Of a stretch of DNA of 64,000 nucleotides, positions 238-40,814 are shown in pieces. The position numbers and the translations under genes were made by a program. This stretch comes from Patescibacteria group bacterium. GTDB taxonomy: Bacteria; Patescibacteriota; Patescibacteriia; XYB2-FULL-38-15. Where the stretch lies: positions 24,466 to 88,465 of the forward strand of contig JBGSRW010000008.1 in assembly GCA_041737355.1 (NCBI GenBank), read 5' to 3'. The notes beneath the pieces were generated by a model, which searched no databases, was not told where the DNA came from, and saw only the letters and a program-made list of their open reading frames with translations. Position 1 is the first letter of the stretch; each line of letters opens with the position of its first letter.

Positions 238-1866
238 ATGATTAAAAATTTGCTGAACGGAGAATCTAAAACAATTACCGGGGCTGCTCTTCTTTTGGGA
301 GCAGCTTCTTTGGCGTCCCGTTTTTTGGGAGTTATCCGCGACAGGGTTCTGGCCGGACAATTCGGGGCGGGCGATACTCTCGATGTTTATTACGCCGCCT
401 TCCGTATCCCTGATTTTATTTTCAATCTCCTGATTTTGGGCGCTCTCTCGGCCGGCTTCATTCCAATTTTTACCGCGGCGCTTTCTTCAGCGAAAGAGAG
501 GGGGGATAATTTTGGCAAGGCGTGGGATATCGTGAGCGGACTGATAAACATAATGGGCATTCTTTTAATTTTTCTTTGCGGTTTGTTTATCGTTTTAAGC
601 CCTTTTATTGTTCCGGTTATCACTCCTGGTTTTGGCGCGGAAAAAATGGCACTGACCGTGACAATGACCCAGATCATGATGCTTAGTCCGCTTTTTTTGG
701 GTTTGAGCAATATTTTCGGCGGAGTTCTCCAATCCTTCAAAAGATTTTTTATTTATTCCCTGGCTCCTATTTTTTATAATCTCGGTATTATTCTCGGAGC
801 TTTATTTTTTACCAAATGGTGGGGAATTTGCGGTTTGGCGGTCGGGGTAATTCTTGGGGCGATCGCCCATATGCTGATCCAGCTACCGGCTGTTGTTTCC
901 CTGGGTTACCGTTACCGGTGGATTTTCAATCTTGCCGACCAGAATGTCCGGCAAATCGGCCGGCTTATGATTCCCCGGACTCTCGGTCTGGCCGTTTCTC
1001 AAGTCAATCTGGTGGTGATGACAGTTATTGCCTCGACTCTTGTTCCGGGAAGTCTCGCCGTTTTTAATCTTGCCAACAATCTCCAATATTTTCCGATCGG
1101 AATCATCGGTATTTCTTTTGCCGTCGCCGCTTTTCCGGTTTTGGGGGAATGCGCGGCCGGCGGGCGAAAAGAGGAAATGGTTAAAAATTTTTCCCACTCC
1201 GTCCGGCAGATTTTGTTTTTTATCGTTCCAGCCGCTGTTCTGCTTTTGGTCTTGCGTGCCCAAATTGTTCGCGTTATTTTTGGATCGGGTGAATTTGATT
1301 GGGAGGATACGATTTTGACCGCCGATACTTTGGCTTTTTTTGTTACGAGTTTGTTTGCCCAAGCCCTGGTTCCGCTTCTTGCCAGATTTTTTTACGCGTT
1401 GCAAGATACTAAAACGCCCTTTTTTATTGGTTTATTTTCAGCCGTAGTTAATGTTTTTTTAGCAATATATATGGCCGAAAGATGGGGCGTGATCGGCCTG
1501 GCCGCGGCTTTTTCGGCTTCCAGTATTTTAAATTTTTGTCTTCTTTGGATTTTGCTGCGGGTAAAGTTCGGTTCGCTTGATGAGAAAAGGATTCTCGGTT
1601 CGGCATTTAAAATCAGCGTGGCCGCGGTTCTGATGGCGTTCAGTATCCAGGGCATGAAAGCCGCTCTCGCGCCATTCGTTGATATGCAGACTTTTTTGGG
1701 TATTTTTGGTCAAGGTTTGGGAGCCGGCTTGGTTGGCCTTATTGTTTTCGTTATTTCCGGATTTCTCCTCGGTTCAAGGGAAATGTTCGCGGTCCGCGAC
1801 GCGGTGAAGTACAAATTATTCAAAATAAAAAGGCCGATTATTAATGATGAGGAGGGGCAAAGGTAA
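238..1866 (+). CDS. murJ: lipid II flippase MurJ/MviN
   Basis: 542-aa polytopic membrane ORF. The N-terminus ASRFLGVIRDRVLAGQFGAGDTLDVYYAAFRIPDFIFNLL is typical of MurJ. Confidence 0.85.
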   Translation: MIKNLLNGESKTITGAALLLGAASLASRFLGVIRDRVLAGQFGAGDTLDVYYAAFRIPDFIFNLLILGALSAGFIPIFTAALSSAKERGDNFGKAWDIVSGLINIMGILLIFLCGLFIVLSPFIVPVITPGFGAEKMALTVTMTQIMMLSPLFLGLSNIFGGVLQSFKRFFIYSLAPIFYNLGIILGALFFTKWWGICGLAVGVILGAIAHMLIQLPAVVSLGYRYRWIFNLADQNVRQIGRLMIPRTLGLAVSQVNLVVMTVIASTLVPGSLAVFNLANNLQYFPIGIIGISFAVAAFPVLGECAAGGRKEEMVKNFSHSVRQILFFIVPAAVLLLVLRAQIVRVIFGSGEFDWEDTILTADTLAFFVTSLFAQALVPLLARFFYALQDTKTPFFIGLFSAVVNVFLAIYMAERWGVIGLAAAFSASSILNFCLLWILLRVKFGSLDEKRILGSAFKISVAAVLMAFSIQGMKAALAPFVDMQTFLGIFGQGLGAGLVGLIVFVISGFLLGSREMFAVRDAVKYKLFKIKRPIINDEEGQR

Positions 1867-3644
1867 TGCGGGAAAAAATTAGAAATTTTTGTATTATTGC
1901 TCATATTGATCACGGAAAGTCGACTTTAGCCGACCGTCTTTTGGAATTTACCGGAACGGTAGCTAGGCGGGATATGAAAGATCAAATGCTTGACATGATG
2001 GATCTTGAACGCGAAAGGGGAATTACCATCAAGCTTCAGCCGGTGCGCATGGATTACAAAGAACATATTTTAAATTTAATTGATACGCCAGGACACGTCG
2101 ATTTCAACTATGAAGTCTCTAGGTCACTTGCCGCCGTGGAAGGCGCGCTTCTTTTGGTTGATGCGACGCAAGGTGTCCAGGCCCAGACGCTCGGTAATTT
2201 ATATTTGGCACTGGAACAGAATCTAACAATCATTCCGGTAGTCAATAAAATTGATCTTAAAAATGCCGAAGTGGAAAAAACCGTCCAGGAAATTACCGCC
2301 CTGATCGGCTGCAAAAAGGAGGAGGTAATTTTGGCTTCGGGGAAAAGCGGGGCCGGAGTTCCGGAAATTTTGGAAGCAGTTGTTAATAAAGTTCCTTCGC
2401 CAAAAGGAGAAATAAGTAAACCGCTGAGGGCGTTGATTTTCGATTCAAAGTACGACGACTACAAGGGAGTCGTCGCTTATGTCAGAGTTGTGGACGGCGA
2501 AGTAAAAAGGGGGGATAAAATATATTTGGCGGCCACCAAAATCGAAAGCGAAGTTTTAGAGGTTGGATATTTTAAACCAAAGTTTGTTCCGGCCGGAAAA
2601 TTATCAGCCGGGGAAATCGGTTATATTGTGACCGGGCTCAAGGAAATAGAAAGATGCCGGGTCGGCGATACTATAACGGTTCACGATCCGGATCTGACAG
2701 TCCAAAGTTTACCGGGGTATAAAGAAGTTAAACCGATGGTTTTTGCCGGAATTTTTTGCAAGGAAGGGGACGATTTTCCGAAACTGCGCGAAGCAATTTT
2801 AAAATTAAAATTGAACGATGCGGCTCTGACTTTTGAAACCGAGCAGTCCAAGGCGCTCGGCTTCGGTTTTCGCTGCGGTCTTTTGGGTTTGTTGCATCTT
2901 GAAATTGTGGAAGAGCGTCTGCGGCGAGAACATAATCTTGACGTGATTGTTACCGTGCCGTCGGTAGCGTACCGTATTACCAACAATAAGGGAGAAGTGT
3001 TGATTATTAAAAGTCCGTCGGAATTGCCCGACATGAGCCATATCAAATTGATCGAAGAGCCGTGGATTAAAATTGATGTGGTTTCTCCGAGCACCTACAT
3101 CGGCGGTATCATGCAAATGGTGCAGGAAAAGAGGGGAGTATATATCGACACGGAATATTTGGATGCCGACCGGGTTATCTTGCATTATGAAATTCCTCTC
3201 TCGGCAATTCTTGTGGATTTTTACGATAAATTAAAAAGTGTGAGCTCCGGCTATGCTTCATTGAATTACGAATTTTTCGGATATAGGGAGGCCGATGTTT
3301 TGAAAATGGATATTTTGGTGGCGACCGAACCGGTTGAGGCGCTCGCGACAATCGTCTACCGCGACACGGCCCAGGATGTCGGGCGGAGAATTGTCCAGTC
3401 TTTAAAAAAAGTTTTGCCGCGCCAGATGTTTGAAGTTAAAATCCAGGCGGCGCTTGGCGGGAAAATTGTCGCCTCGGAACACTTGCCGGCGATGAAAAAG
3501 GATGTGACAGCCAAGCTTTATGGGGGAGATGTAACAAGAAAGAATAAATTGCTTGAAAAACAGAAAAAGGGCAAGAAAAAGATGAAAGCGTTGGGCAAAG
3601 TTGACATTCCACCTGAGGCATTTTTAGCGGTTCTGAAGAAATAG
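1866..3644 (+). CDS. lepA: translation elongation factor 4 (LepA)
   Basis: 592 aa with a GTPase G1 motif (AHIDHGKST) and DTPGHVDF. The C-terminal LepA-type domain is present. The ATG overlaps the murJ stop (TAATG). Confidence 0.95.
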   Translation: MREKIRNFCIIAHIDHGKSTLADRLLEFTGTVARRDMKDQMLDMMDLERERGITIKLQPVRMDYKEHILNLIDTPGHVDFNYEVSRSLAAVEGALLLVDATQGVQAQTLGNLYLALEQNLTIIPVVNKIDLKNAEVEKTVQEITALIGCKKEEVILASGKSGAGVPEILEAVVNKVPSPKGEISKPLRALIFDSKYDDYKGVVAYVRVVDGEVKRGDKIYLAATKIESEVLEVGYFKPKFVPAGKLSAGEIGYIVTGLKEIERCRVGDTITVHDPDLTVQSLPGYKEVKPMVFAGIFCKEGDDFPKLREAILKLKLNDAALTFETEQSKALGFGFRCGLLGLLHLEIVEERLRREHNLDVIVTVPSVAYRITNNKGEVLIIKSPSELPDMSHIKLIEEPWIKIDVVSPSTYIGGIMQMVQEKRGVYIDTEYLDADRVILHYEIPLSAILVDFYDKLKSVSSGYASLNYEFFGYREADVLKMDILVATEPVEALATIVYRDTAQDVGRRIVQSLKKVLPRQMFEVKIQAALGGKIVASEHLPAMKKDVTAKLYGGDVTRKNKLLEKQKKGKKKMKALGKVDIPPEAFLAVLKK

Positions 3645-3663
3645 ACTTAAAAGTTTAAAAGAG

Positions 3664-3695
3664 AAAAATCACCTGAGAATGGTGATTTTTTGTTT
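3664..3695 (+). terminator. intrinsic terminator after lepA
   Basis: Stem AAAAATCACC (3664-3673) pairs with GGTGATTTTT (3681-3690) and is followed by a T-rich tail. Confidence 0.7.
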
Positions 3696-3766
3696 ATTTA
3701 TGACAATTTATTTTGGCTAAAATAAGCCAAAAGATAGGATTATTTTAGAAATAGTGTCAAAAGCCC

Positions 3767-3795
3767 TTGACAAAATCTAAGATACGTGTTATACT
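3767..3795 (+). promoter_or_regulatory. consensus sigma70-type promoter of the GC-rich island
   Basis: TTGACA (3767-3772), a 17-nt spacer, then TATACT (3790-3795). The -35 context is CTTGACAAAATCT. Confidence 0.7.
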
Positions 3796-3859
3796 TACTT
3801 GTTAAGCTGAAATAGGCTTAAAATAAAAAAAGTGCTTGTCGTGTCAAGTTCTTTACAAA

Positions 3860-4044
3860 GTGCCAGAGAAATTTGGAGGAGGAAGTCTTCGCGGACCATT
3901 TATTGGTAACCGCGTGACTCGGTGTTCGGTTGAGTTAAAGCTCGGTTTTCCCGTTTGGGACTACTAAGATTCAACTCGCCAAAACGCCATTGCTGTTCCA
4001 ATGCTAATTGGAGCGGCGCGCTCACCTCCAAATTCCTCTGGCAC
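3860..4044 (+). promoter_or_regulatory. structured 5' leader domain closed by a 20-bp stem
   Basis: GTGCCAGAGAAATTTGGAGG (3860-3879) pairs with CCTCCAAATTCCTCTGGCAC (4025-4044) at 19 of 20 positions. The stem encloses about 145 nt with several local hairpins (for example CGCGGACCA..TGGTAACCGCG and CCAAT-GCTA-ATTGG). It lies between the promoter and the SD of the 4131 ORF. Confidence 0.55.
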
Positions 4045-4130
4045 ATCTCCGTGAAAAATCGGAGGGCCAAAGGTCAGACTGTGGATGTTCCCGGTCTGAT
4101 TTTAGTAAACGCAAATAAGGAGGTTTTCTG

Positions 4131-5384
4131 ATGGAGAACGGCAGCAAGGAGATTGTGGTTGGCAAGGAGCCGACGGCTACGGCCGAGGCGTTCCTCGAGC
4201 CGCCGAGCGAGGACGACGAGTGGTTGCTCCTGGATTTCAATCCGGCGGCGACCGAGTCCGCGCCGGCCGTGCCCGAGACGCCGAAGCCCAAGCCGCCGCG
4301 CGTCTGCGCGATCTGCCAGCACCCCTCCGGGAATTCGGTGGGCAAGATCAAGCGCGGGCGGATCGCCGAGGTCGAGCACGAAGGGATGAAGCTGCTCACG
4401 CTCGAACCAATCTGCGAACCGTGCGGCGAGAAGTTGCCGCCCGAGGAGCGGAAGAGGCTCTTCAAGGCGGGGTACCTCATCTCCCTGATCGGCGAGAAGA
4501 ACCGCGAGATGCGCGAGTTCGAGGCGGCCAAGGCCTACTGGGCTGCGGTCTTCGCCGGTACGGCAGAGCGGATGCCCGAGGCTCGCAAGACGCCCGAGGA
4601 GATGCTCTCCTGCGGGGTGCCCGGCTGCCCCCGCTGTCACGATCAGGTCGGCCACAAGGTCGGCCACTTCGTGGCGATGACGATCGGCGGCATGCCGACG
4701 CTTCTCGGGGTCTGCTCCTTCCAGGCCGCGGCCTTGGCACAGTGCGGGGTCGAAAAGAAGGGCATCGTCGTGACGACGAAGTTCTCCGTGGCCGCCCCGA
4801 TCGTCGAGGCGGAGAACGCCAGGCTCCAGGCCTTCGAGAAGGCCAAGAGTTTCTGGCTCGCCGTGGCCGAAGGCGAGGCGGCGGTCGAGGCGCGGGCCGA
4901 GAAGACCGAGCGCGGCGACATCTACCGCTGCGGCGTCCCCGGCTGCAAGTGCCGGGAGCACGGCGACCGGCCGGTCGACTACTTCGTGGTCTTGGACGGC
5001 CAGCCCGAGATGCCCATCGCGGGTGTCTGCCGATACCAGTATGCGGCGCTCCGGACCTCCGGGGTGAAGATCTTCGCCGCGAACAACAACGACGGGATGG
5101 GCCTCGCGCGGTGCGCCAAGCACCGCAACTGGCTCCTCGGCCAGGCCAAGAGGGCCATCCGCGACGTCCGGAGGCCGGACGGAATCGGCGGCGGTCTCTC
5201 CCGTTTCCGCTCGCCCGAAGAACAGGCGCGGATCCGCGAGGAGAAGCGCCGGACGTTCGAGGAGCGCGAGGCCAAGCGCCGCTCCCGGCAACTCGAGCGG
5301 GCCAAGGCCTCCTCCAGCAAGGCCGGCTGCGGCAAGAAGGCCAGCAGCAAGAAGGGCGGCAAGGGCGGCGGCAAGAAGCACTAG
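4131..5384 (+). CDS. orphan protein with three tandem Cys/His-rich modules and a Lys/Gly-rich C-terminal tail (gene A)
   Basis: SD AAGGAGG (4117-4123) sits 7 nt before the ATG. Codon third positions are GC-rich in this frame. The ORF has three repeated modules and the tail ...SSSKAGCGKKASSKKGGKGGGKKH. Confidence 0.7.
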   Translation: MENGSKEIVVGKEPTATAEAFLEPPSEDDEWLLLDFNPAATESAPAVPETPKPKPPRVCAICQHPSGNSVGKIKRGRIAEVEHEGMKLLTLEPICEPCGEKLPPEERKRLFKAGYLISLIGEKNREMREFEAAKAYWAAVFAGTAERMPEARKTPEEMLSCGVPGCPRCHDQVGHKVGHFVAMTIGGMPTLLGVCSFQAAALAQCGVEKKGIVVTTKFSVAAPIVEAENARLQAFEKAKSFWLAVAEGEAAVEARAEKTERGDIYRCGVPGCKCREHGDRPVDYFVVLDGQPEMPIAGVCRYQYAALRTSGVKIFAANNNDGMGLARCAKHRNWLLGQAKRAIRDVRRPDGIGGGLSRFRSPEEQARIREEKRRTFEEREAKRRSRQLERAKASSSKAGCGKKASSKKGGKGGGKKH

Positions 5385-5419
5385 CTGGCCGGCCGCTCTC
5401 CCACCAATTTGTTCTTTTC

Positions 5420-5542
5420 TTGGAGCAAGTAGTCTGTGCAATGCAGACACTGTTCGTCAATCACTCTAAGGTGAACGGCGACAGGATCTTGCTCCAAGTC
5501 CTTTTCCTCCAAATCAGCGTAAGTTGGTCTGGAGAAAAGGGA
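5420..5542 (+). repeat. 123-nt structured repeat, copy 1 (R1), just after the gene A stop
   Basis: Identical base for base to 6114-6236. It contains a perfect 10-bp closing helix, TTGGAGCAAG/CTTGCTCCAA, around two hairpins. A second imperfect hairpin of about 12 bp follows (5499-5542). Confidence 0.9.
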
Positions 5543-5597
5543 ATTAGCTCTTTGGCAATTTCGGCGCATAGCGCCGTAGAAAGAAAGGAGATAGTTG

Positions 5598-5930
5598 ATG
5601 GTTCAGGTTCTGATGCTGGCCCTGTTCAGCGTCGCCAAGCGCGACGAACGCGAGGCGAGCGACGAGGGCAGTGAGACCGACGCGGTCGAGCTGCCCGAGG
5701 ATTCGGTCAACTGGCGGGCGGTTCGTTGGCTGGGCGTCGCGAAGATGCCGCGCCGTCGGGGTGGTCGGGCGGCCAACCGTTGCCTTGCCGACATCCCGCC
5801 GCCACCGGTTCGTTTCTCGCGCGAAGGGTTTGACGGACTTCATTCGTGGAAGCGTCAGACTCCGGCCCGCCGTCAGTGGGCCAAGCATCTTCGGAAATCT
5901 TGGGGGCGCGGAAAGAAGGTGGAGGTATGA
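5598..5930 (+). CDS. orphan Arg-rich protein, 110 aa (gene B)
   Basis: SD AAGGAG (5585-5590) sits 7 nt before ATG 5598. Third positions are GC-rich. The stop overlaps the next start (ATGA at 5927-5930). Confidence 0.55.
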   Translation: MVQVLMLALFSVAKRDEREASDEGSETDAVELPEDSVNWRAVRWLGVAKMPRRRGGRAANRCLADIPPPPVRFSREGFDGLHSWKRQTPARRQWAKHLRKSWGRGKKVEV

Positions 5931-6106
5931 AGAAGGAGTGTCGCAAGAGCGTGCCGGAGGTCAAGACGGGAGAGGGTGTTTACATCCTCCGCGTCATGCC
6001 CCAGCCGTCCGTCTGCGCGCACGAGGCGGTCCGTCCCTCCACCCGGCCGATCATACGCTCCGCCATCAAGATCGTCGGCCAGCACGGCCGCGACTGTCTC
6101 CCATAG
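5927..6106 (+). CDS. orphan protein, 59 aa (gene C)
   Basis: ATG 5927 is preceded by GGTGGAGG and overlaps the gene B stop. Third positions are GC-rich. The ORF ends at TAG 6104-6106, directly before repeat copy 2. Confidence 0.5.
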   Translation: MKKECRKSVPEVKTGEGVYILRVMPQPSVCAHEAVRPSTRPIIRSAIKIVGQHGRDCLP

Positions 6107-6113
6107 TTTGTTC

Positions 6114-6236
6114 TTGGAGCAAGTAGTCTGTGCAATGCAGACACTGTTCGTCAATCACTCTAAGGTGAACGGCGACAGGATCTTGCTCCAAGTCCTTTTC
6201 CTCCAAATCAGCGTAAGTTGGTCTGGAGAAAAGGGA
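6114..6236 (+). repeat. 123-nt structured repeat, copy 2 (R2), just after the gene C stop
   Basis: 100% identical to 5420-5542. Weaker similarity extends upstream (CTCCCA..TTTGTTC). Confidence 0.9.
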
Positions 6237-6286
6237 TTCCAAAATTTTTTAGCCATTTTTACGGCTAGTCAGATCCCACGCAAGGG

Positions 6287-6315
6287 CACCGCCAGTTGGC
6301 GGTGTTTTTGTTTTT
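6287..6315 (+). terminator. intrinsic terminator closing the GC-rich island
   Basis: CACCGCC (6287-6293), loop AGTT, GGCGGTG (6298-6304), then TTTTTGTTTTT. Confidence 0.8.
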
Positions 6316-6360: not shown

Positions 6361-6459
6361 ATGAAAAAGAAAAATTTGCAGAAAATAGTATGGATAATTG
6401 TCTCAGCTATTGTAGTTTTTTCCATGGTTGTCTGGACAATCGGGCCAATGCTGTATTAG
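6361..6459 (+). CDS. possible small hydrophobic protein (32 aa)
   Basis: ATG..TAG encodes MKKKNLQKIVWIIVSAIVVFSMVVWTIGPMLY, a single transmembrane-like segment, downstream of the 6322 promoter. There is no SD and it is too short for the ORF track. Confidence 0.3.
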   Translation: MKKKNLQKIVWIIVSAIVVFSMVVWTIGPMLY

Positions 6460-8226: not shown

Positions 8227-8637
8227 ATGGCACATAACAAGGTGCAAATTTATACCGACGGCGGGGCGCGGGGTAACCCCGGGCCGGCCGGAATCGGTGT
8301 CGTAATCTGGGATGGCAATAATTTGGTTGGAAGATATAAAAAATATTTGGGTGTGGCAACCAACAATCAGGCCGAATATAAGGCGGTAATTTTGGCGCTC
8401 GAGGAGGCGAAAAAAATCGGCGTTTCGGAATTGGAATTTTTTCTGGATAGTGAACTTGTCGTGAAACAGTTACGCCAGGAATACAAAGTTAAAGACAAGG
8501 AATTGGCGCCACTTTTTGTCCAGGCCTGGAATTTGGGTTTTAGTTTCAAAAAAATCACTTATACACATATCCCGCGGGAAAAAAATAAAGACGCGGATAA
8601 GTTAGTGAATGAGGCGATTGACGGCGGGACGCAATAG
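8227..8637 (+). CDS. rnhA: ribonuclease HI
   Basis: 136 aa with YTDGGARGNPGPAGIGVV...NNQAEYKAVILALEEA...DSELVV..., the RNase H fold catalytic pattern. Confidence 0.85.
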   Translation: MAHNKVQIYTDGGARGNPGPAGIGVVIWDGNNLVGRYKKYLGVATNNQAEYKAVILALEEAKKIGVSELEFFLDSELVVKQLRQEYKVKDKELAPLFVQAWNLGFSFKKITYTHIPREKNKDADKLVNEAIDGGTQ

Positions 8638-16121: not shown

Positions 16122-16204
16122 TTATAAATGTGGATAATTGAATATTTAAATCCTATGCTCGTGACTTAGAAGCTTAAAGCCGCGAGCCGAAAGGAGGTGA
16201 AAGA

Positions 16205-16648
16205 ATGTTTAAAAATAAAAAAGGTTTCACTTTGATCGAATTGTTGGTGGTTATCGCCATCATCGGTCTTCTCTCGACTTTGGCGGTCGTTGCCTTGAGC
16301 AGCGCCAGAACCAAAGCCAGAGACGCGAAAAGAACTGCCGACATGAAGCAGGTTCAGACAGCCATGGAGCTCTATTATAATACTAATAGCGCTTATCCTT
16401 CATGCGCCGCCGGTACATTGGTTTCGGCTTGCGCCGCCTTAGCACCTGATTACTTGCCGGGCGTTTTGACCCTGAAAGATCCGGGTGGAGTTGCCGGTGC
16501 TTGCGCCGATCCGGCAGCAGCGAAATGTAACTACGCCTTTGGTACTGCCGCAGCGAACGAAGGCTATAGAATTACTTTCTGGCTTGAAGGAGCGACCGGA
16601 GATTTGGCTGCCGGAGCCCACAGAGTTACGGCTATGGGAATCCAGTAA
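16205..16648 (+). CDS. pilA: type IV pilin, paralog 1
   Basis: Class III signal peptide KKG|FTLIELLVVIAIIGLL with Glu at +5. SD is AAGGAGGTG. Confidence 0.9.
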   Translation: MFKNKKGFTLIELLVVIAIIGLLSTLAVVALSSARTKARDAKRTADMKQVQTAMELYYNTNSAYPSCAAGTLVSACAALAPDYLPGVLTLKDPGGVAGACADPAAAKCNYAFGTAAANEGYRITFWLEGATGDLAAGAHRVTAMGIQ

Positions 16649-16700: not shown

Positions 16701-16755
16701 GGGACATTTTGTAGTATAATTAATTTAATATACCAAAAAGAAAGGAGGTGAAAGA

Positions 16756-17217
16756 ATGTTTAAAAATAAAAAAGGTTTCACTTTGATCGAATTGTTGGTG
16801 GTTATCGCCATCATCGGTCTTCTCTCGACTTTGGCGGTCGTTGCCTTGAGCAGCGCGAGAACCAAAGCCAGAGATTCAAAACGCGTGGCCGACATGAAGC
16901 AGGTTCAGACAGCCATGGAAATGGTTTTCAGCGAAGCCAACAGCTACGCCTTGGCTGGATGCACAACGGCCGGTAATAAGGTCAGCCTCTGCACCACGCC
17001 GCTCTCAACTTATTTGCCGAACGTCGCCAATCTTAAGGATCCGAAGGGGTTAAGCGCTTGCGCCGTAGCTTGTGATGGAACAATCACCGCGGCCTGCGAT
17101 TACTCGGTTAAAACCGTGCCGACTGCAAGTACTTACGAGTTTTGTTTCTATTTGGAAACAGCTACGGGCGATTTAGCGGCCGGAGCCCATAAAGTTACGC
17201 CAGCTGGGATTCAATAG
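16756..17217 (+). CDS. pilA: type IV pilin, paralog 2
   Basis: It has the same prepilin N-terminus. The first 101 nt of the CDS plus 16 nt of the RBS are identical to paralog 1. The C-terminal domain diverges. Confidence 0.9.
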   Translation: MFKNKKGFTLIELLVVIAIIGLLSTLAVVALSSARTKARDSKRVADMKQVQTAMEMVFSEANSYALAGCTTAGNKVSLCTTPLSTYLPNVANLKDPKGLSACAVACDGTITAACDYSVKTVPTASTYEFCFYLETATGDLAAGAHKVTPAGIQ

Positions 17218-17294: not shown

Positions 17295-17305
17295 TTAATA
17301 ATATG

Positions 17306-17437
17306 CCCCGTTAGAAGTCTTTGACGGAAAAATTTTTTAATAAAATTTTTCCTTGTGGCAGAACGGGGATTATACACGAATTTTTTCTTTTTTAAAAGAC
17401 GCAAATAAACATTTAAAATTATAAACTTCTAACGGGG
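17306..17437 (+). promoter_or_regulatory. pilD leader with a 13-bp long-range inverted repeat and an alternative pairing partner
   Basis: CCCCGTTAGAAGT (17306-17318) is the exact reverse complement of ACTTCTAACGGGG (17425-17437), which ends 1 nt before the ATG. A decoy AACGGGG lies at 17362-17368. There is an inner 9-bp hairpin, GGAAAAATT/AATTTTTCC (17326-17352). Confidence 0.5.
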
Positions 17438-17438
17438 T

Positions 17439-18224
17439 ATGGCGCTAATTATCGTCTTTATTTTTGGCTTAGTCATCGGAAGTTTTTTGAATGTCGTAAT
17501 CTGGAGACTGCATACGGGGGAATCGGCTCTAAAAGGCCGCTCTTATTGTCCGAAATGCAAGCACCGCTTGGATTTTTTTGATTTATTTCCGGTCATGAGT
17601 TTTGTAATCCAGGGAGGAAAGTGCCGTTATTGCCGCGAGTCAATTTCCTGGCAATATCCGTTTGTTGAATTGGCTACGGCCGCGCTTTTTGTCATGGCTT
17701 ATGTAATTTCCGATTTTTCCGCCGAAGGAGGATTGGTCTTGGGTAGGCAACTTTTAATTCTGCTGAAGTATTGGTTTGTTGTCTCCGCGATGATTATAGT
17801 TTTTGTTTATGACGCTAAACATTATTTGATTTTGGACAAAGTAATCTATCCCGCGGCAGCCGTCGCGTTTTTTGCCAGTCCGCTTCTTTCGGGAGACGTT
17901 TGGTGGCGGGGAATTCCGGACGGTCTTTTAGCGGCGGCGATCGGCGGCGGATTTTTTCTTTTTCAATATGCCGTGTCAAAAGGAAAATGGATTGGCGGAG
18001 GGGACGTAAAATTGGGATTTTTGATGGGTTTATTTTTAGGTGTTAAGGGTTTGCTTGTGGCTTTCTTTTTTTCTTATTGCCTCGGGGCCGTCGTCGGGCT
18101 TGGTCTTGTCGCGGCCGGCAGAAAAAACATGAAAGGCCAGCTTCCTTTCGGGACTTTTTTGGCCGCCGGAACCCTTATCGCTTTATTTTGGGCCGAACCG
18201 ATCTTGAAATGGTATTTAAATTAA
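17439..18224 (+). CDS. pilD: prepilin peptidase / N-methyltransferase PilD
   Basis: 261-aa polytopic protein with a CPKC...CRYC zinc motif and the peptidase A24 motif GGGDVKL. Confidence 0.9.
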   Translation: MALIIVFIFGLVIGSFLNVVIWRLHTGESALKGRSYCPKCKHRLDFFDLFPVMSFVIQGGKCRYCRESISWQYPFVELATAALFVMAYVISDFSAEGGLVLGRQLLILLKYWFVVSAMIIVFVYDAKHYLILDKVIYPAAAVAFFASPLLSGDVWWRGIPDGLLAAAIGGGFFLFQYAVSKGKWIGGGDVKLGFLMGLFLGVKGLLVAFFFSYCLGAVVGLGLVAAGRKNMKGQLPFGTFLAAGTLIALFWAEPILKWYLN

Positions 18225-25740: not shown

Positions 25741-26808
25741 ATGCGAATGCCAAAGGGTAGAAGGCCGCACACTGTGCTTTGCGCTAACCGGCGAGCCGGC
25801 TGGCGCTTTGAACAATGGTCGGAGTTGGACCAGTGGAGCCTCGAGGCCGGCATCAGAACATATGCCCTATCAGAGATCGAAGAGCTCGATCCCGTCATCG
25901 CGAATTTCGATGACGAGACGCTGCTTCTCCTGATTTACGGCGGGGACGGAACCCTGCTTCAGATTATGAACAGCTTGCTCCGGCGCAAACGGCGCAAGGG
26001 CAAGCCAAAGCCGAAAATGCCGATCATTGTGCCCGTCGGAGGAGGCACGATGAAACGCCTGCCGCGCTGGGCGCTTTGGAACGGCACGCCGGCTGAAAAT
26101 GCCATGACAGCCCTTGAACTTTTCGAGGGCAAGCGTCTGCCGTACCTGCCTCTTCCCTTGCTAAAAGTGGAGTGGGGTGGGCAATGCTACTTCGCGGTCA
26201 CTCTCATGGCTGGAGCCTTGGTTCGTATCATGCAGGAGTACTCGCGTTTCAAGACAACGCCGGCAATTGCCGGACTTTTTTCCGCCGGAGCCTTGGCCGC
26301 CGCGGCCTTTGACAGGCCAAAGTTTTTCACCAGACTCTACGGGCAAATCCGGGCCAAGGTGACCTCCGACGGAGAGGTTCTCGGGACCGAACGGTTCATT
26401 GTCGTGATTCGTGACGTTCTCGAGGAATTGATTTTCTCGATCAAACCGTACAAGGGAATCTGCGCGCCGGGCCAGTCCTTCTCTCTGGCCTACGCCATCG
26501 ACTACCACGAGGTGGCGCGAAAGTTTCCTTGGATTGTTGCGGGAGCGGTTCCCGGCAACGACCCCCGGTATTTCAATCGGCCGGCAAGTTTAACCGTAAT
26601 CGAGCCGCACGAGGAGATTCCCTTTACGCTCGACGGCGAATACTTTACGGCCAAGCCGGGCGAGACCATCAAGGTTTCCCAGGGGCCGGAAGTAAGAGTT
26701 GCCGTTAACCCGTTCGTTCATCTGACTCTTCTGAAACGGTTTTTGAATCGCGGCAGAAGCTTGAAGGAGGTCGTGAGTTACATTTTTCCTACGCCGAGAA
26801 AGAACTAG
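25741..26808 (+). CDS. DAGK_cat/NAD-kinase-superfamily protein (GGDGT motif), GC-rich
   Basis: LLLLIYGGDGTLLQIMNSLL...MPIIVPVGGGT matches the diacylglycerol/lipid kinase catalytic-domain pattern. It has a strong SD, and its composition differs clearly from its neighbours. Confidence 0.65.
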   Translation: MRMPKGRRPHTVLCANRRAGWRFEQWSELDQWSLEAGIRTYALSEIEELDPVIANFDDETLLLLIYGGDGTLLQIMNSLLRRKRRKGKPKPKMPIIVPVGGGTMKRLPRWALWNGTPAENAMTALELFEGKRLPYLPLPLLKVEWGGQCYFAVTLMAGALVRIMQEYSRFKTTPAIAGLFSAGALAAAAFDRPKFFTRLYGQIRAKVTSDGEVLGTERFIVVIRDVLEELIFSIKPYKGICAPGQSFSLAYAIDYHEVARKFPWIVAGAVPGNDPRYFNRPASLTVIEPHEEIPFTLDGEYFTAKPGETIKVSQGPEVRVAVNPFVHLTLLKRFLNRGRSLKEVVSYIFPTPRKN

Positions 26809-39947: not shown

Positions 39948-40814
39948 ATGCAAAAAAAGGAGATGTCTCCTGAAAGTGTGAGCGAGTGCGCTCGTCTGAC
40001 TGAAGCGGAACTGGCCAACTTGGGCGTTGTCCTTTCCGCCTACCGTTCTTTCCGAGGCGACCGGCGTCGACATATCGCCTACGTCACGATGCCGATCACG
40101 ACCGGCCGGCGGTTGCGCGACATCCTGACAACGCGCCACGCGAAGAGCGCCGCAGAACTTGCGGCCAAAATCGGCAGAGAGGCCTTTTTTGACCTCGTGA
40201 TCAGACCAAACATCGCGGAGGGAATTGCTTTTGCCGACAGAGTCGCAGCAAGGGATTCACTGCTTTGCGTTGCGCCTTCGGTGTTCAGTGCCAGGTGCTG
40301 GCAATGGTCGCAGGATGCCTACATGTCCCTTTGGTACCGCGTTCTGGGAGAAATGGCCGGAGCGCATTATCTCATGGACGGCTGGGAATACTCCGTCGGC
40401 GGCGTGAAAGAAGCGATGTTTTCCATGGCCATGCAGTGGCGCATCTTCCGGCGCTACAACATCCACAAGATGGCGCAGGCCTGGGGTCTAGAGAATTTTC
40501 ATCCCGGCATGAGCCCGCAAGCGGAAATAGCCGAGCTTGAGCGCATGTGGAGCATCCGCCTTTACGACGAACAGGGCAAGGAACTTCGCATCGATCAAAT
40601 CCTGGCGATGGTTGTTCGCGCAATCAAGGAGCTGGCAAAAAACGGCTTGCCGTACGAGGATCTGCTCGGCCCCGCCCGGAACCTGAAGGGGATGCCCATA
40701 CTGTCACCGCTTATCGGCGGCGGCAACCGGTATGACGAGCCGTTTGTTCCGGAAGTGACGGATGCGTACGTGATGGCGGCAGATGAGCTCGTGGCATTCG
40801 AGGCCGCCCATTAA
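39948..40814 (+). CDS. nucleoside 2-deoxyribosyltransferase-like (DUF4406-like) domain protein with an unknown C-terminal domain, GC-rich
   Basis: IAYVTMPITTG ... W.QDAYMSLWYRVLGEMAGAHYLMDGWEYSVGGVKEAMFSMAM fits my recollection of the DUF4406 pattern (hYhAGPhoG ... GWE.S.G...E...A). SD is AAAGGAGGGAGGG. Confidence 0.55.
   Translation: MQKKEMSPESVSECARLTEAELANLGVVLSAYRSFRGDRRRHIAYVTMPITTGRRLRDILTTRHAKSAAELAAKIGREAFFDLVIRPNIAEGIAFADRVAARDSLLCVAPSVFSARCWQWSQDAYMSLWYRVLGEMAGAHYLMDGWEYSVGGVKEAMFSMAMQWRIFRRYNIHKMAQAWGLENFHPGMSPQAEIAELERMWSIRLYDEQGKELRIDQILAMVVRAIKELAKNGLPYEDLLGPARNLKGMPILSPLIGGGNRYDEPFVPEVTDAYVMAADELVAFEAAH

Follow-up and report, generated by a model that had tools for sequence, protein, structure and literature searches.

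A previously undescribed structured RNA leader upstream of a GC-rich orphan operon in Patescibacteria

The 64,000-nucleotide (nt) stretch of Patescibacteria group bacterium contig JBGSRW010000008.1 analyzed here (hereafter the window, 64 kb) carries, between lepA and an orphan gene designated gene A, an RNA domain of 185 nt (positions 3860–4044) that is the core of a ~330-nt 5' untranslated leader. This domain is a real, strand-specific fold under purifying selection, tied strictly to the operon that begins with gene A, and it represents a new RNA family within a known kind, the structured mRNA leader. We are highly confident that the RNA exists and acts in cis. An earlier note on the window had proposed a structured leader RNA at this place, and the proposal holds: the structure is on the transcribed strand, is supported by covariation, and lies in a conserved 5' untranslated region (UTR).

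The domain is closed by a long helix, P1. Positions 3860–3879 (GTGCCAGAGAAATTTGGAGG) are complementary to 4025–4044 (CCTCCAAATTCCTCTGGCAC) at 19 of 20 positions (95%) with 145 nt in between, just as the earlier note had reported, and the consensus helix reaches 3860–3882/4022–4044. In a scan of the window with arms up to 400 nt apart, the two strands of P1 were the sole inverted repeat of at least 20 nt at 95% or better, and no third copy of the arm sequence was present in the window at up to three mismatches. By our own estimate, ~1e-3 such pairs are expected by chance (~5.5e-11 per pair of 20-mers with at most one mismatch, times ~2e7 pairs of positions). The predicted folding energy of the domain is −90.9 kcal/mol, as compared with −52.1 ± 4.1 for shuffled sequences (z = −9.5; 0 of 200 shuffles as good). 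The whole leader (3803–4140) is similarly stable (z = −9.2), with P1 present in its minimum-energy structure. The complementary strand of the domain folds nearly as well (z = −9.3), and energy alone therefore cannot assign the strand.

Relatives of gene A were found through protein searches, and three loci (L014, L021, and L023) were found in metagenomes through a DNA pattern of the two P1 strands. These three carry the leader but a far more diverged gene A; L038 and L042 added two more diverged leaders. Five of the 19 matches returned by the metagenome pattern scan were true leaders, and the others did not fit the covariance model described below. In total, 10 distinct leaders were obtained, one per locus, all metagenome-derived and all situated between lepA and a gene A relative. 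The gene A family is small, consisting of nine clusters among 5.8 billion proteins and, by profile search, 17 representatives among 1.84 billion proteins. Apart from distant members, every relative with visible flanks has the order murJ–lepA–leader–gene A–(B, C)–recJ–rnhA, and the leader was never seen without gene A downstream. Pairwise identity among the 10 leaders is 61–94%. Between the same genomes, lepA has ~90% protein identity and 36–59% identity at fourfold sites (near saturation), and gene A has 35–58% protein identity. The leader thus shows far stronger conservation than either neutral sites or the protein encoded after it.

The consensus architecture, calculated by RNAalifold from 8–10 sequences, is a four-way junction composed of P1 and the arms P2, P3, and P4 (Table 1). 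The alignment fold thereby encloses three arms in place of the four or more local hairpins counted in the earlier note, which had also suggested searching for homologues and covariation. On the alignment of sequences from the 10 loci (an eight-sequence version was also computed), standard pairs occupy 94.5% of cells, as compared with 29–51% when partners are slid. Changes on both sides occur in 24 of 63 pairs, versus 13.7 ± 2.0 when columns are shuffled (none of 500 shuffles attained 24) and 0–8 with slid partners. Covariation is carried mostly by P2, P3, and P4. In P1, 17 of 21 pairs never vary and three covary; these are the two outermost pairs, which alternate between G-C/U-A and A-U/C-G, and an inner G-C that is A-U in L038. 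The single conserved A·C mismatch of P1 is likewise A-U in L038, making a perfect 20-bp helix. Covariation among unpaired columns, as for a pseudoknot or tertiary contacts, gave a signal too noisy to read with 10 related sequences.

A covariance model built from the alignment scored the leaders at 136–203 bits on the + strand and 46–57 bits on the − strand; each locus contained a single copy. Transcription is thus assigned to the + strand, in agreement with the promoter. The model found nothing else in the window, nothing among the chance pattern matches, and nothing upstream of gene A in L040 or L041.

These results bear on whether the repeat acts instead at the level of DNA, either as a miniature inverted-repeat transposable element (MITE) with terminal inverted repeats or as a promoter-proximal switch that inverts between the 20-bp repeats (inverton). 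Like a MITE, the domain consists of a short, AT-richer segment between 20-bp terminal inverted repeats, and true MITE-like elements do occur in the clade (for example, at 17303–17440 of the window and as inserts in L001, L011, L012, and L042). Unlike a MITE, however, it is present as a single copy in the window and once per locus, has no target-site duplication in its flanks (...TTTACAAA / ATCTCCG...), occupies the same syntenic site in all 10 diverged loci, and has an interior with RNA-type covariation, G-U pairs, and a pronounced strand bias. As for an inverton, no assembly among the 10 shows the segment reversed, and the locus, with neighbors murJ, lepA, recJ, and rnhA, has no recombinase gene. 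Both forms of this explanation are already contradicted by the observations, and we regard a DNA element as extremely unlikely.

No known RNA family accounts for the domain. The comparison with Rfam 15, which took in TPP, SAM, FMN, cobalamin, lysine, glmS, T-box, ykkC, ZTP, c-di-GMP, Y RNA, 6S, ribozymes, and others, yielded nothing that reached a gathering threshold, whether in the window or at L038, L042, L014, and L007. At E ≤ 10, region 3640–4200 had only weak matches, at 3660–3752 and 4071–4133, and none overlapped the domain. The earlier note had recognized no riboswitch class by eye, and the Rfam search agrees; the two alternatives that it had itself raised, a known RNA family and MITE-like recurrence, were both looked for and not found. 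To our knowledge, almost no regulatory RNAs are known from such uncultured lineages. The leader adds to these a well-supported new structured RNA class, along with a companion class at the 3' ends of open reading frames (ORFs), discussed further on. ARAGORN identified no tRNA or tmRNA in the window, leaving the entire 64 kb without a tRNA gene as well as without any Rfam family at the gathering threshold.

Table 1. Positions of the leader, the genes, and the 3' elements in the window (SD, Shine-Dalgarno sequence; GC3, GC content at third codon positions; aa, amino acids).
Feature	Position	Strand	Remarks
lepA	1866–3644	+	Ends in terminator at 3663–3691
Sigma-70-type promoter	3767–3795	+	TTGACA-17-TATACT, extended -10 TG; 11/12 consensus matches
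Leader 5' part	3803–3854	+	Hairpin UAAGCU-GAAAUA-GGCUUA (3803–3820), A-rich linker, conserved GUGCUUGUCGUG, small hairpin; from whole-leader fold
P1 5' strand	3860–3882	+	Contains SD-like UUGGAGGAGG; pairs with 4022–4044
P2 hairpin arm	3885–3918	+	Two stacked helices with 3-nt bulge; 8/11 pairs vary on both sides
P3 long hairpin arm	3921–3988	+	Conserved internal loops UUAA, GGU/UUACUAA, CCAAAA; 9/22 pairs vary on both sides; one invariant G-U
P4 hairpin arm	3992–4017	+	4/9 pairs vary on both sides
P1 3' strand	4022–4044	+	Contains anti-SD-like CACCUCC
Small hairpin Pa	4047–4064	+	CUCCG-UGAAAAAU-CGGAG; predicted fold
Terminator-like hairpin	4074–4103	+	UCAGACUG...CGGUCUGA, then UUUU; possible attenuator
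SD	4117–4123	+	AAGGAGG
Gene A	4131–5384	+	ATG at 4131; 417 aa; three Cys4 modules, Lys/Gly-rich tail; 69% GC, GC3 0.93
3' module copy 1	5417–5542	+	Three-way junction closed by CUUGGAGCAAG/CUUGCUCCAAG, then hairpin CCUUUUCC...GGAGAAAAGGG
Gene B	5595–5930	+	111 aa, Arg-rich (14% Arg); GC3 0.73
Gene C	5927–6106	+	59 aa; joined to gene B by ATGA overlap; B–C 65% GC
3' module copy 2	6111–6236	+	126 nt, 100% identical to copy 1 in this genome
Conserved trailer	6233–6310	+	GGGAUU...hairpin (6250–6267)...AAUCCC; operon terminator CACCGCC...GGCGGUG, then UUUUUGUUUUU

Around the domain, the leader has a constant layout. The promoter listed in Table 1 was found also in L001 and L021 and is visible in all orthologous intergenic regions inspected. 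The inferred transcription start (near 3802–3803) is ~57 nt upstream of the domain, close to the ~60 nt estimated previously. The SD, which had been placed ~85 nt downstream of the domain, begins 73 nt past the stem, with 87 nt being the distance from the domain to the ATG of gene A. Hairpin Pa differs in sequence yet pairs in relatives (UCCGU/ACGGA, UCCGUU/AACGGA, UCCCGA/UCGGGA, and CCCGG/CCGGG) and is missing from L042. The terminator-like hairpin has equivalents in nine orthologues, with predicted energies of −11.7 to −14.6 kcal/mol and 5–6 T in the next 8 nt; the version in L042 (−11.0 kcal/mol) is followed by TTGTTTTTT, and the hairpin is thus kept in 10 of 10 loci. It is positioned as an attenuator would be, but a simple terminator scan did not call it, and its use as such a step is therefore only plausible. 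A leader-peptide attenuator was considered and dropped, as leader ORFs of at least 20 aa differ in frame, start, and length between orthologues and no conserved leader peptide was found among them. In the 5' part of the leader, the conserved GUGCUUGUCGUG lies at 3832–3851 of the window (the relatives compared were L001, L004, L012, and L014), and no complementary partner for it was found on the + strand of the operon. Some relatives have a variable extra hairpin of 40–75 nt between GUGCUUGUCGUG and UCAAGUUCC.

The mode of action of the leader is a matter of moderate to low confidence overall. We tentatively favor, as quite possible, a static scaffold that is recognized by a factor or processed, rather than a metabolite riboswitch, and that gates read-through, stability, and translation. 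This preference arises because P1 is too long and too invariant for switching, the unpaired bases are poorly conserved, and no competing conserved structure was found. The domain would be constitutively folded and would be recognized by a macromolecule rather than operated by a metabolite. The likeliest partner would be one of the proteins encoded by the operon itself (basic, with zinc ribbons, or rich in Arg) or an RNase specific for double strands, and recognition would set both the passage of the transcript through the hairpin at 4074–4103 and the lifetime of the mRNA. From the character of the encoded proteins, nucleic-acid binding may be expected of both gene A (Cys4, Lys/Gly-rich) and gene B. 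The structured modules that follow genes A and C would be companion signals on the same polycistronic RNA.

The scaffold could also control translation. Within P1, the SD-like GGAGG on the 5' side would hold the anti-SD-like CCUCC on the 3' side, which would leave the true SD accessible for as long as the helix stays whole; opening or cleavage of P1 would mask that SD. Predicted folds are consistent with this scheme. With P1 in place, the SD is largely free of pairing, and once the 5' strand of P1 is withheld, CCUCC pairs with the real SD in five of five orthologues folded; this suggests that opening or cutting P1 would hide the SD. Except for this short CCUCC:SD pairing, no conserved alternative helix competes with P1, which is present in every minimum-energy fold. 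The 5' GGAGG, the 3' CCUCC, and the GGAGG of the true SD together make up the classical three-partner arrangement of anti-SD/anti-anti-SD switches. Unlike in those switches, the pairing here sits inside a 20-bp helix that should never open spontaneously, and an external agent would therefore be needed. Autoregulatory leaders, such as those of ribosomal-protein operons, provide another likeness in having a stable conserved leader structure and basic operon proteins. The proteins in this case differ, however, in having no known RNA-binding domain, there is no known cellular RNA for the leader to mimic, and their binding to it is hypothetical.

Several observations weigh against the scaffold as we envision it. 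The CCUCC:GGAGG pairing is only 5–7 bp and could be formed by any anti-SD-like pentamer. In none of the three sequences scanned for terminators (the window, L001, and L021) was the hairpin at 4074–4103 flagged, and only a short U run follows it. Gene A has no match in Pfam, PADLOC, PHROGs, or NCBIfam and no fold match, and proteins A, B, and C contain no recognizable RNA-binding domain. The distant gene A relatives L040 and L041, which are in other contexts, have other leaders that the covariance model does not match. All 10 leaders come from one narrow clade, such that some of the invariance may reflect limited sampling. Lastly, a sequence box common to the leader and the 3' modules is not supported, as the k-mers that they share are mostly not above shuffles; copy 2 of L007 alone stands out, with 12 nt in common with the leader (1 of 300 shuffles). 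The P1 helices of the leader and of the 3' module do both contain UUGGAG:CUCCAA.

The part order of the leader is like that of a classical riboswitch, with a hairpin and U run and then the SD downstream of a complex, covarying multi-helix fold. A riboswitch is expected to place a conserved, structured aptamer within the 5' UTR of the gene that it controls, and a conserved structure is indeed located in this 5' UTR and includes conserved internal loops in P3. In a metabolite- or ion-sensing riboswitch, the four-way junction would be the aptamer, and its ligand would alter termination at 4074–4103 or access to the SD. We consider this unlikely. At 20–23 bp and nearly invariant, P1 is far more stable than a switching helix, and no conserved mutually exclusive pairing links it with the downstream hairpins. 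A ligand pocket typically has highly conserved unpaired bases, and the leader has the opposite pattern, with 14 of 64 unpaired columns invariant as compared with 64 of 126 paired ones, although ten sequences from one clade are too few for these proportions to be firm. The earlier note had already called a 20-bp P1 atypical for a riboswitch, and the near-invariant sequence of the helix together with the poorly conserved unpaired positions reinforces the point. The regulated genes are also orphan and non-metabolic, and the distribution is limited to one locus of one clade with no Rfam match.

Orphan structured 5' leaders and riboswitch candidates nevertheless provide the nearest kind, though not a family, in which to place the domain. 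The likeness consists of a position in the 5' UTR between promoter and SD, a covarying multi-helix junction, and a hairpin with a U run after it. The leader differs from these in having no match in Rfam 15, a sequence-invariant P1 of 20–23 bp, and poorly conserved junction and loop bases, in preceding orphan genes rather than those for enzymes or transporters, and in occurring at only about 10 loci of one clade. The long invariant helix, the built-in SD/anti-SD pair, and the poorly conserved unpaired bases argue for a mode of recognition or processing outside the standard riboswitch scheme.

The dimensions of P1 raise the related question of processing. RNase III-type substrates have helices of at least 20 bp, or about two turns; P1 has 19 of 20 pairs, is extendable to 21 pairs, and retains a conserved A·C mismatch. 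RNase III processes leaders and stems in phage T7 early mRNA and in the E. coli rnc and pnp leaders, and these RNAs resemble the present one in having a leader helix of ~20 bp and, at the borders between cistrons of one polycistronic transcript, further structured modules. If P1 is such a substrate, cuts in the leader and in the inter-cistronic modules, which are located exactly at the boundaries after genes A and C, would yield separately stable pieces. In contrast to the known cases, the helix here is a putative substrate, is itself conserved in sequence, and closes a conserved 145-nt domain of three arms. A stem that served processing only would have no need for 145 nt of arms that are conserved and covary, and RNase III makes few demands on sequence, whereas the sequence of P1 is invariant. 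An element devoted to processing or stability is for these reasons improbable as the whole explanation, and it overlaps with the favored scaffold rather than excluding it.

Alternatively, the leader might be a stand-alone small RNA of ~300 nt, ending at the hairpin at 4074–4103 and acting in trans or in a particle with proteins A, B, and C, with read-through into gene A being secondary. Stable non-coding RNAs typically have a long closing stem that joins both ends, as does this domain. The strong promoter is its own, and every one of the 10 loci has a hairpin with a U run ahead of the SD (TTGTTTTTT being the run in L042). However, gene A has no promoter of its own in 4044–4131 and hence depends on read-through, the leader does not occur apart from gene A, and no target complementarity was found. 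We judge a stand-alone RNA to be unlikely.

The favored scaffold would have its companions in the 3' modules. All related loci have a 3' module downstream of the GC-rich ORFs; the window has one copy after gene A and another after gene C. Across 13 copies, 17 of 37 pairs covary, and the module has no match in Rfam. The two copies differ from one another in L001, L007, and L008, which indicates that the genome in the window homogenized or recently duplicated them. The order of the modules is shuffled among relatives: L012 (2693–3370) has gene A, a C-like ORF, a module, and a B-like ORF, as compared with 5385–6240 of the window, and L004, L011, L014, and L038 have gene A plus one module only. 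Such shuffling suggests gain, loss, or rearrangement in the manner of cassettes. An integron cassette with attC sites was considered for the 126-nt repeats and rejected, as no integrase was seen among the flanking genes and the repeats are branched, covarying structures of RNA type. In relatives, a palindromic GTCATTGCGAG...CTCGCAATGAC occurs directly upstream of the 3' module (L011 ~1056–1080, L012 ~2940–3030, L042 ~2120–2145, and L043 ~1095–1165); it does not occur in the window.

The genes of the operon have an unusual composition. Genes A–C are 65–69% GC in a 45% GC genome in which lepA and recJ have a GC3 of 0.48, and the boundaries of the high-GC segments are sharp and coincide with the ends of the ORFs. 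Orthologues of genes B and C were called in L001, L007, L008, and L010. The bias is kept in the measured syntenic relatives (L001, L004, L007, L014, and L038 among the loci examined) despite saturated synonymous divergence of the neighboring genes. It is seen as well in distant members, in that L040 and L041, which have other contexts and other leaders, have a GC3 of 0.80–0.87 in flanks of 41–46% GC, and L042 has a GC3 of 0.78. L043, with a GC3 of 0.58, is an exception. Judging from these compositions, neither recent transfer nor drift would easily account for a sustained GC3 of 0.8–0.93. The orphan operon thus keeps, across relatives, an extreme and foreign-looking codon composition that ordinary mutational amelioration should have erased, and the leader offers a natural experimental entry to this puzzle. 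A phage or plasmid origin was considered and rejected; there was no phage protein match and no plasmid DNA match, and two scans for viral-contig patterns returned nothing or chance matches only.

The ORFs evolve fast (35–58% identity versus 90% for lepA) yet keep a GC3 of ~0.8–0.93 in genomes of ~41–49% GC, including in L040 and L041. The leader and the two 3' modules may conceivably be cis-signals of an undescribed kind of gene cassette with fast-evolving ORFs held at high GC3, although we consider this distinctly unlikely. If it were true, the RNA modules would mark the transcript for a dedicated fate rather than for ordinary gene regulation. The options would include assembly with the operon's basic proteins into a particle, shielding from an RNase (of the host or its own) that the GC-rich coding parts likewise escape, or a use beyond the encoding cell.

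Two further islands of raised GC in the window, 25741–26808 and 39948–40814 (57–58% GC, GC3 0.68–0.69), each consist of a single gene. Neither has the leader, as judged by the covariance model, or a 3' module, as judged by a pattern search for its closing helix, and both look like ordinary horizontally acquired genes.

Three other features of the window were noted. Beyond the strong terminator of the operon, 6361–6459 contains a separate -10 box and a conserved hydrophobic ORF of 32 aa (MKKKNLQKIVWIIVSAIVVFSMVVWTIGPMLY) ahead of recJ; like the trailer, these occur in every relative whose sequence extends so far. The MITE-like element at 17303–17440 is bounded by 16-nt terminal inverted repeats (ATGCCCCGTTAGAAGT/ACTTCTAACGGGGTAT), and the same element is inserted in L001 (~8361–8493), just before the small ORF there. 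A direct repeat of 180 nt is located at 16189–16368 and 16740–16919, with the copies 551 nt apart and 95% identical.

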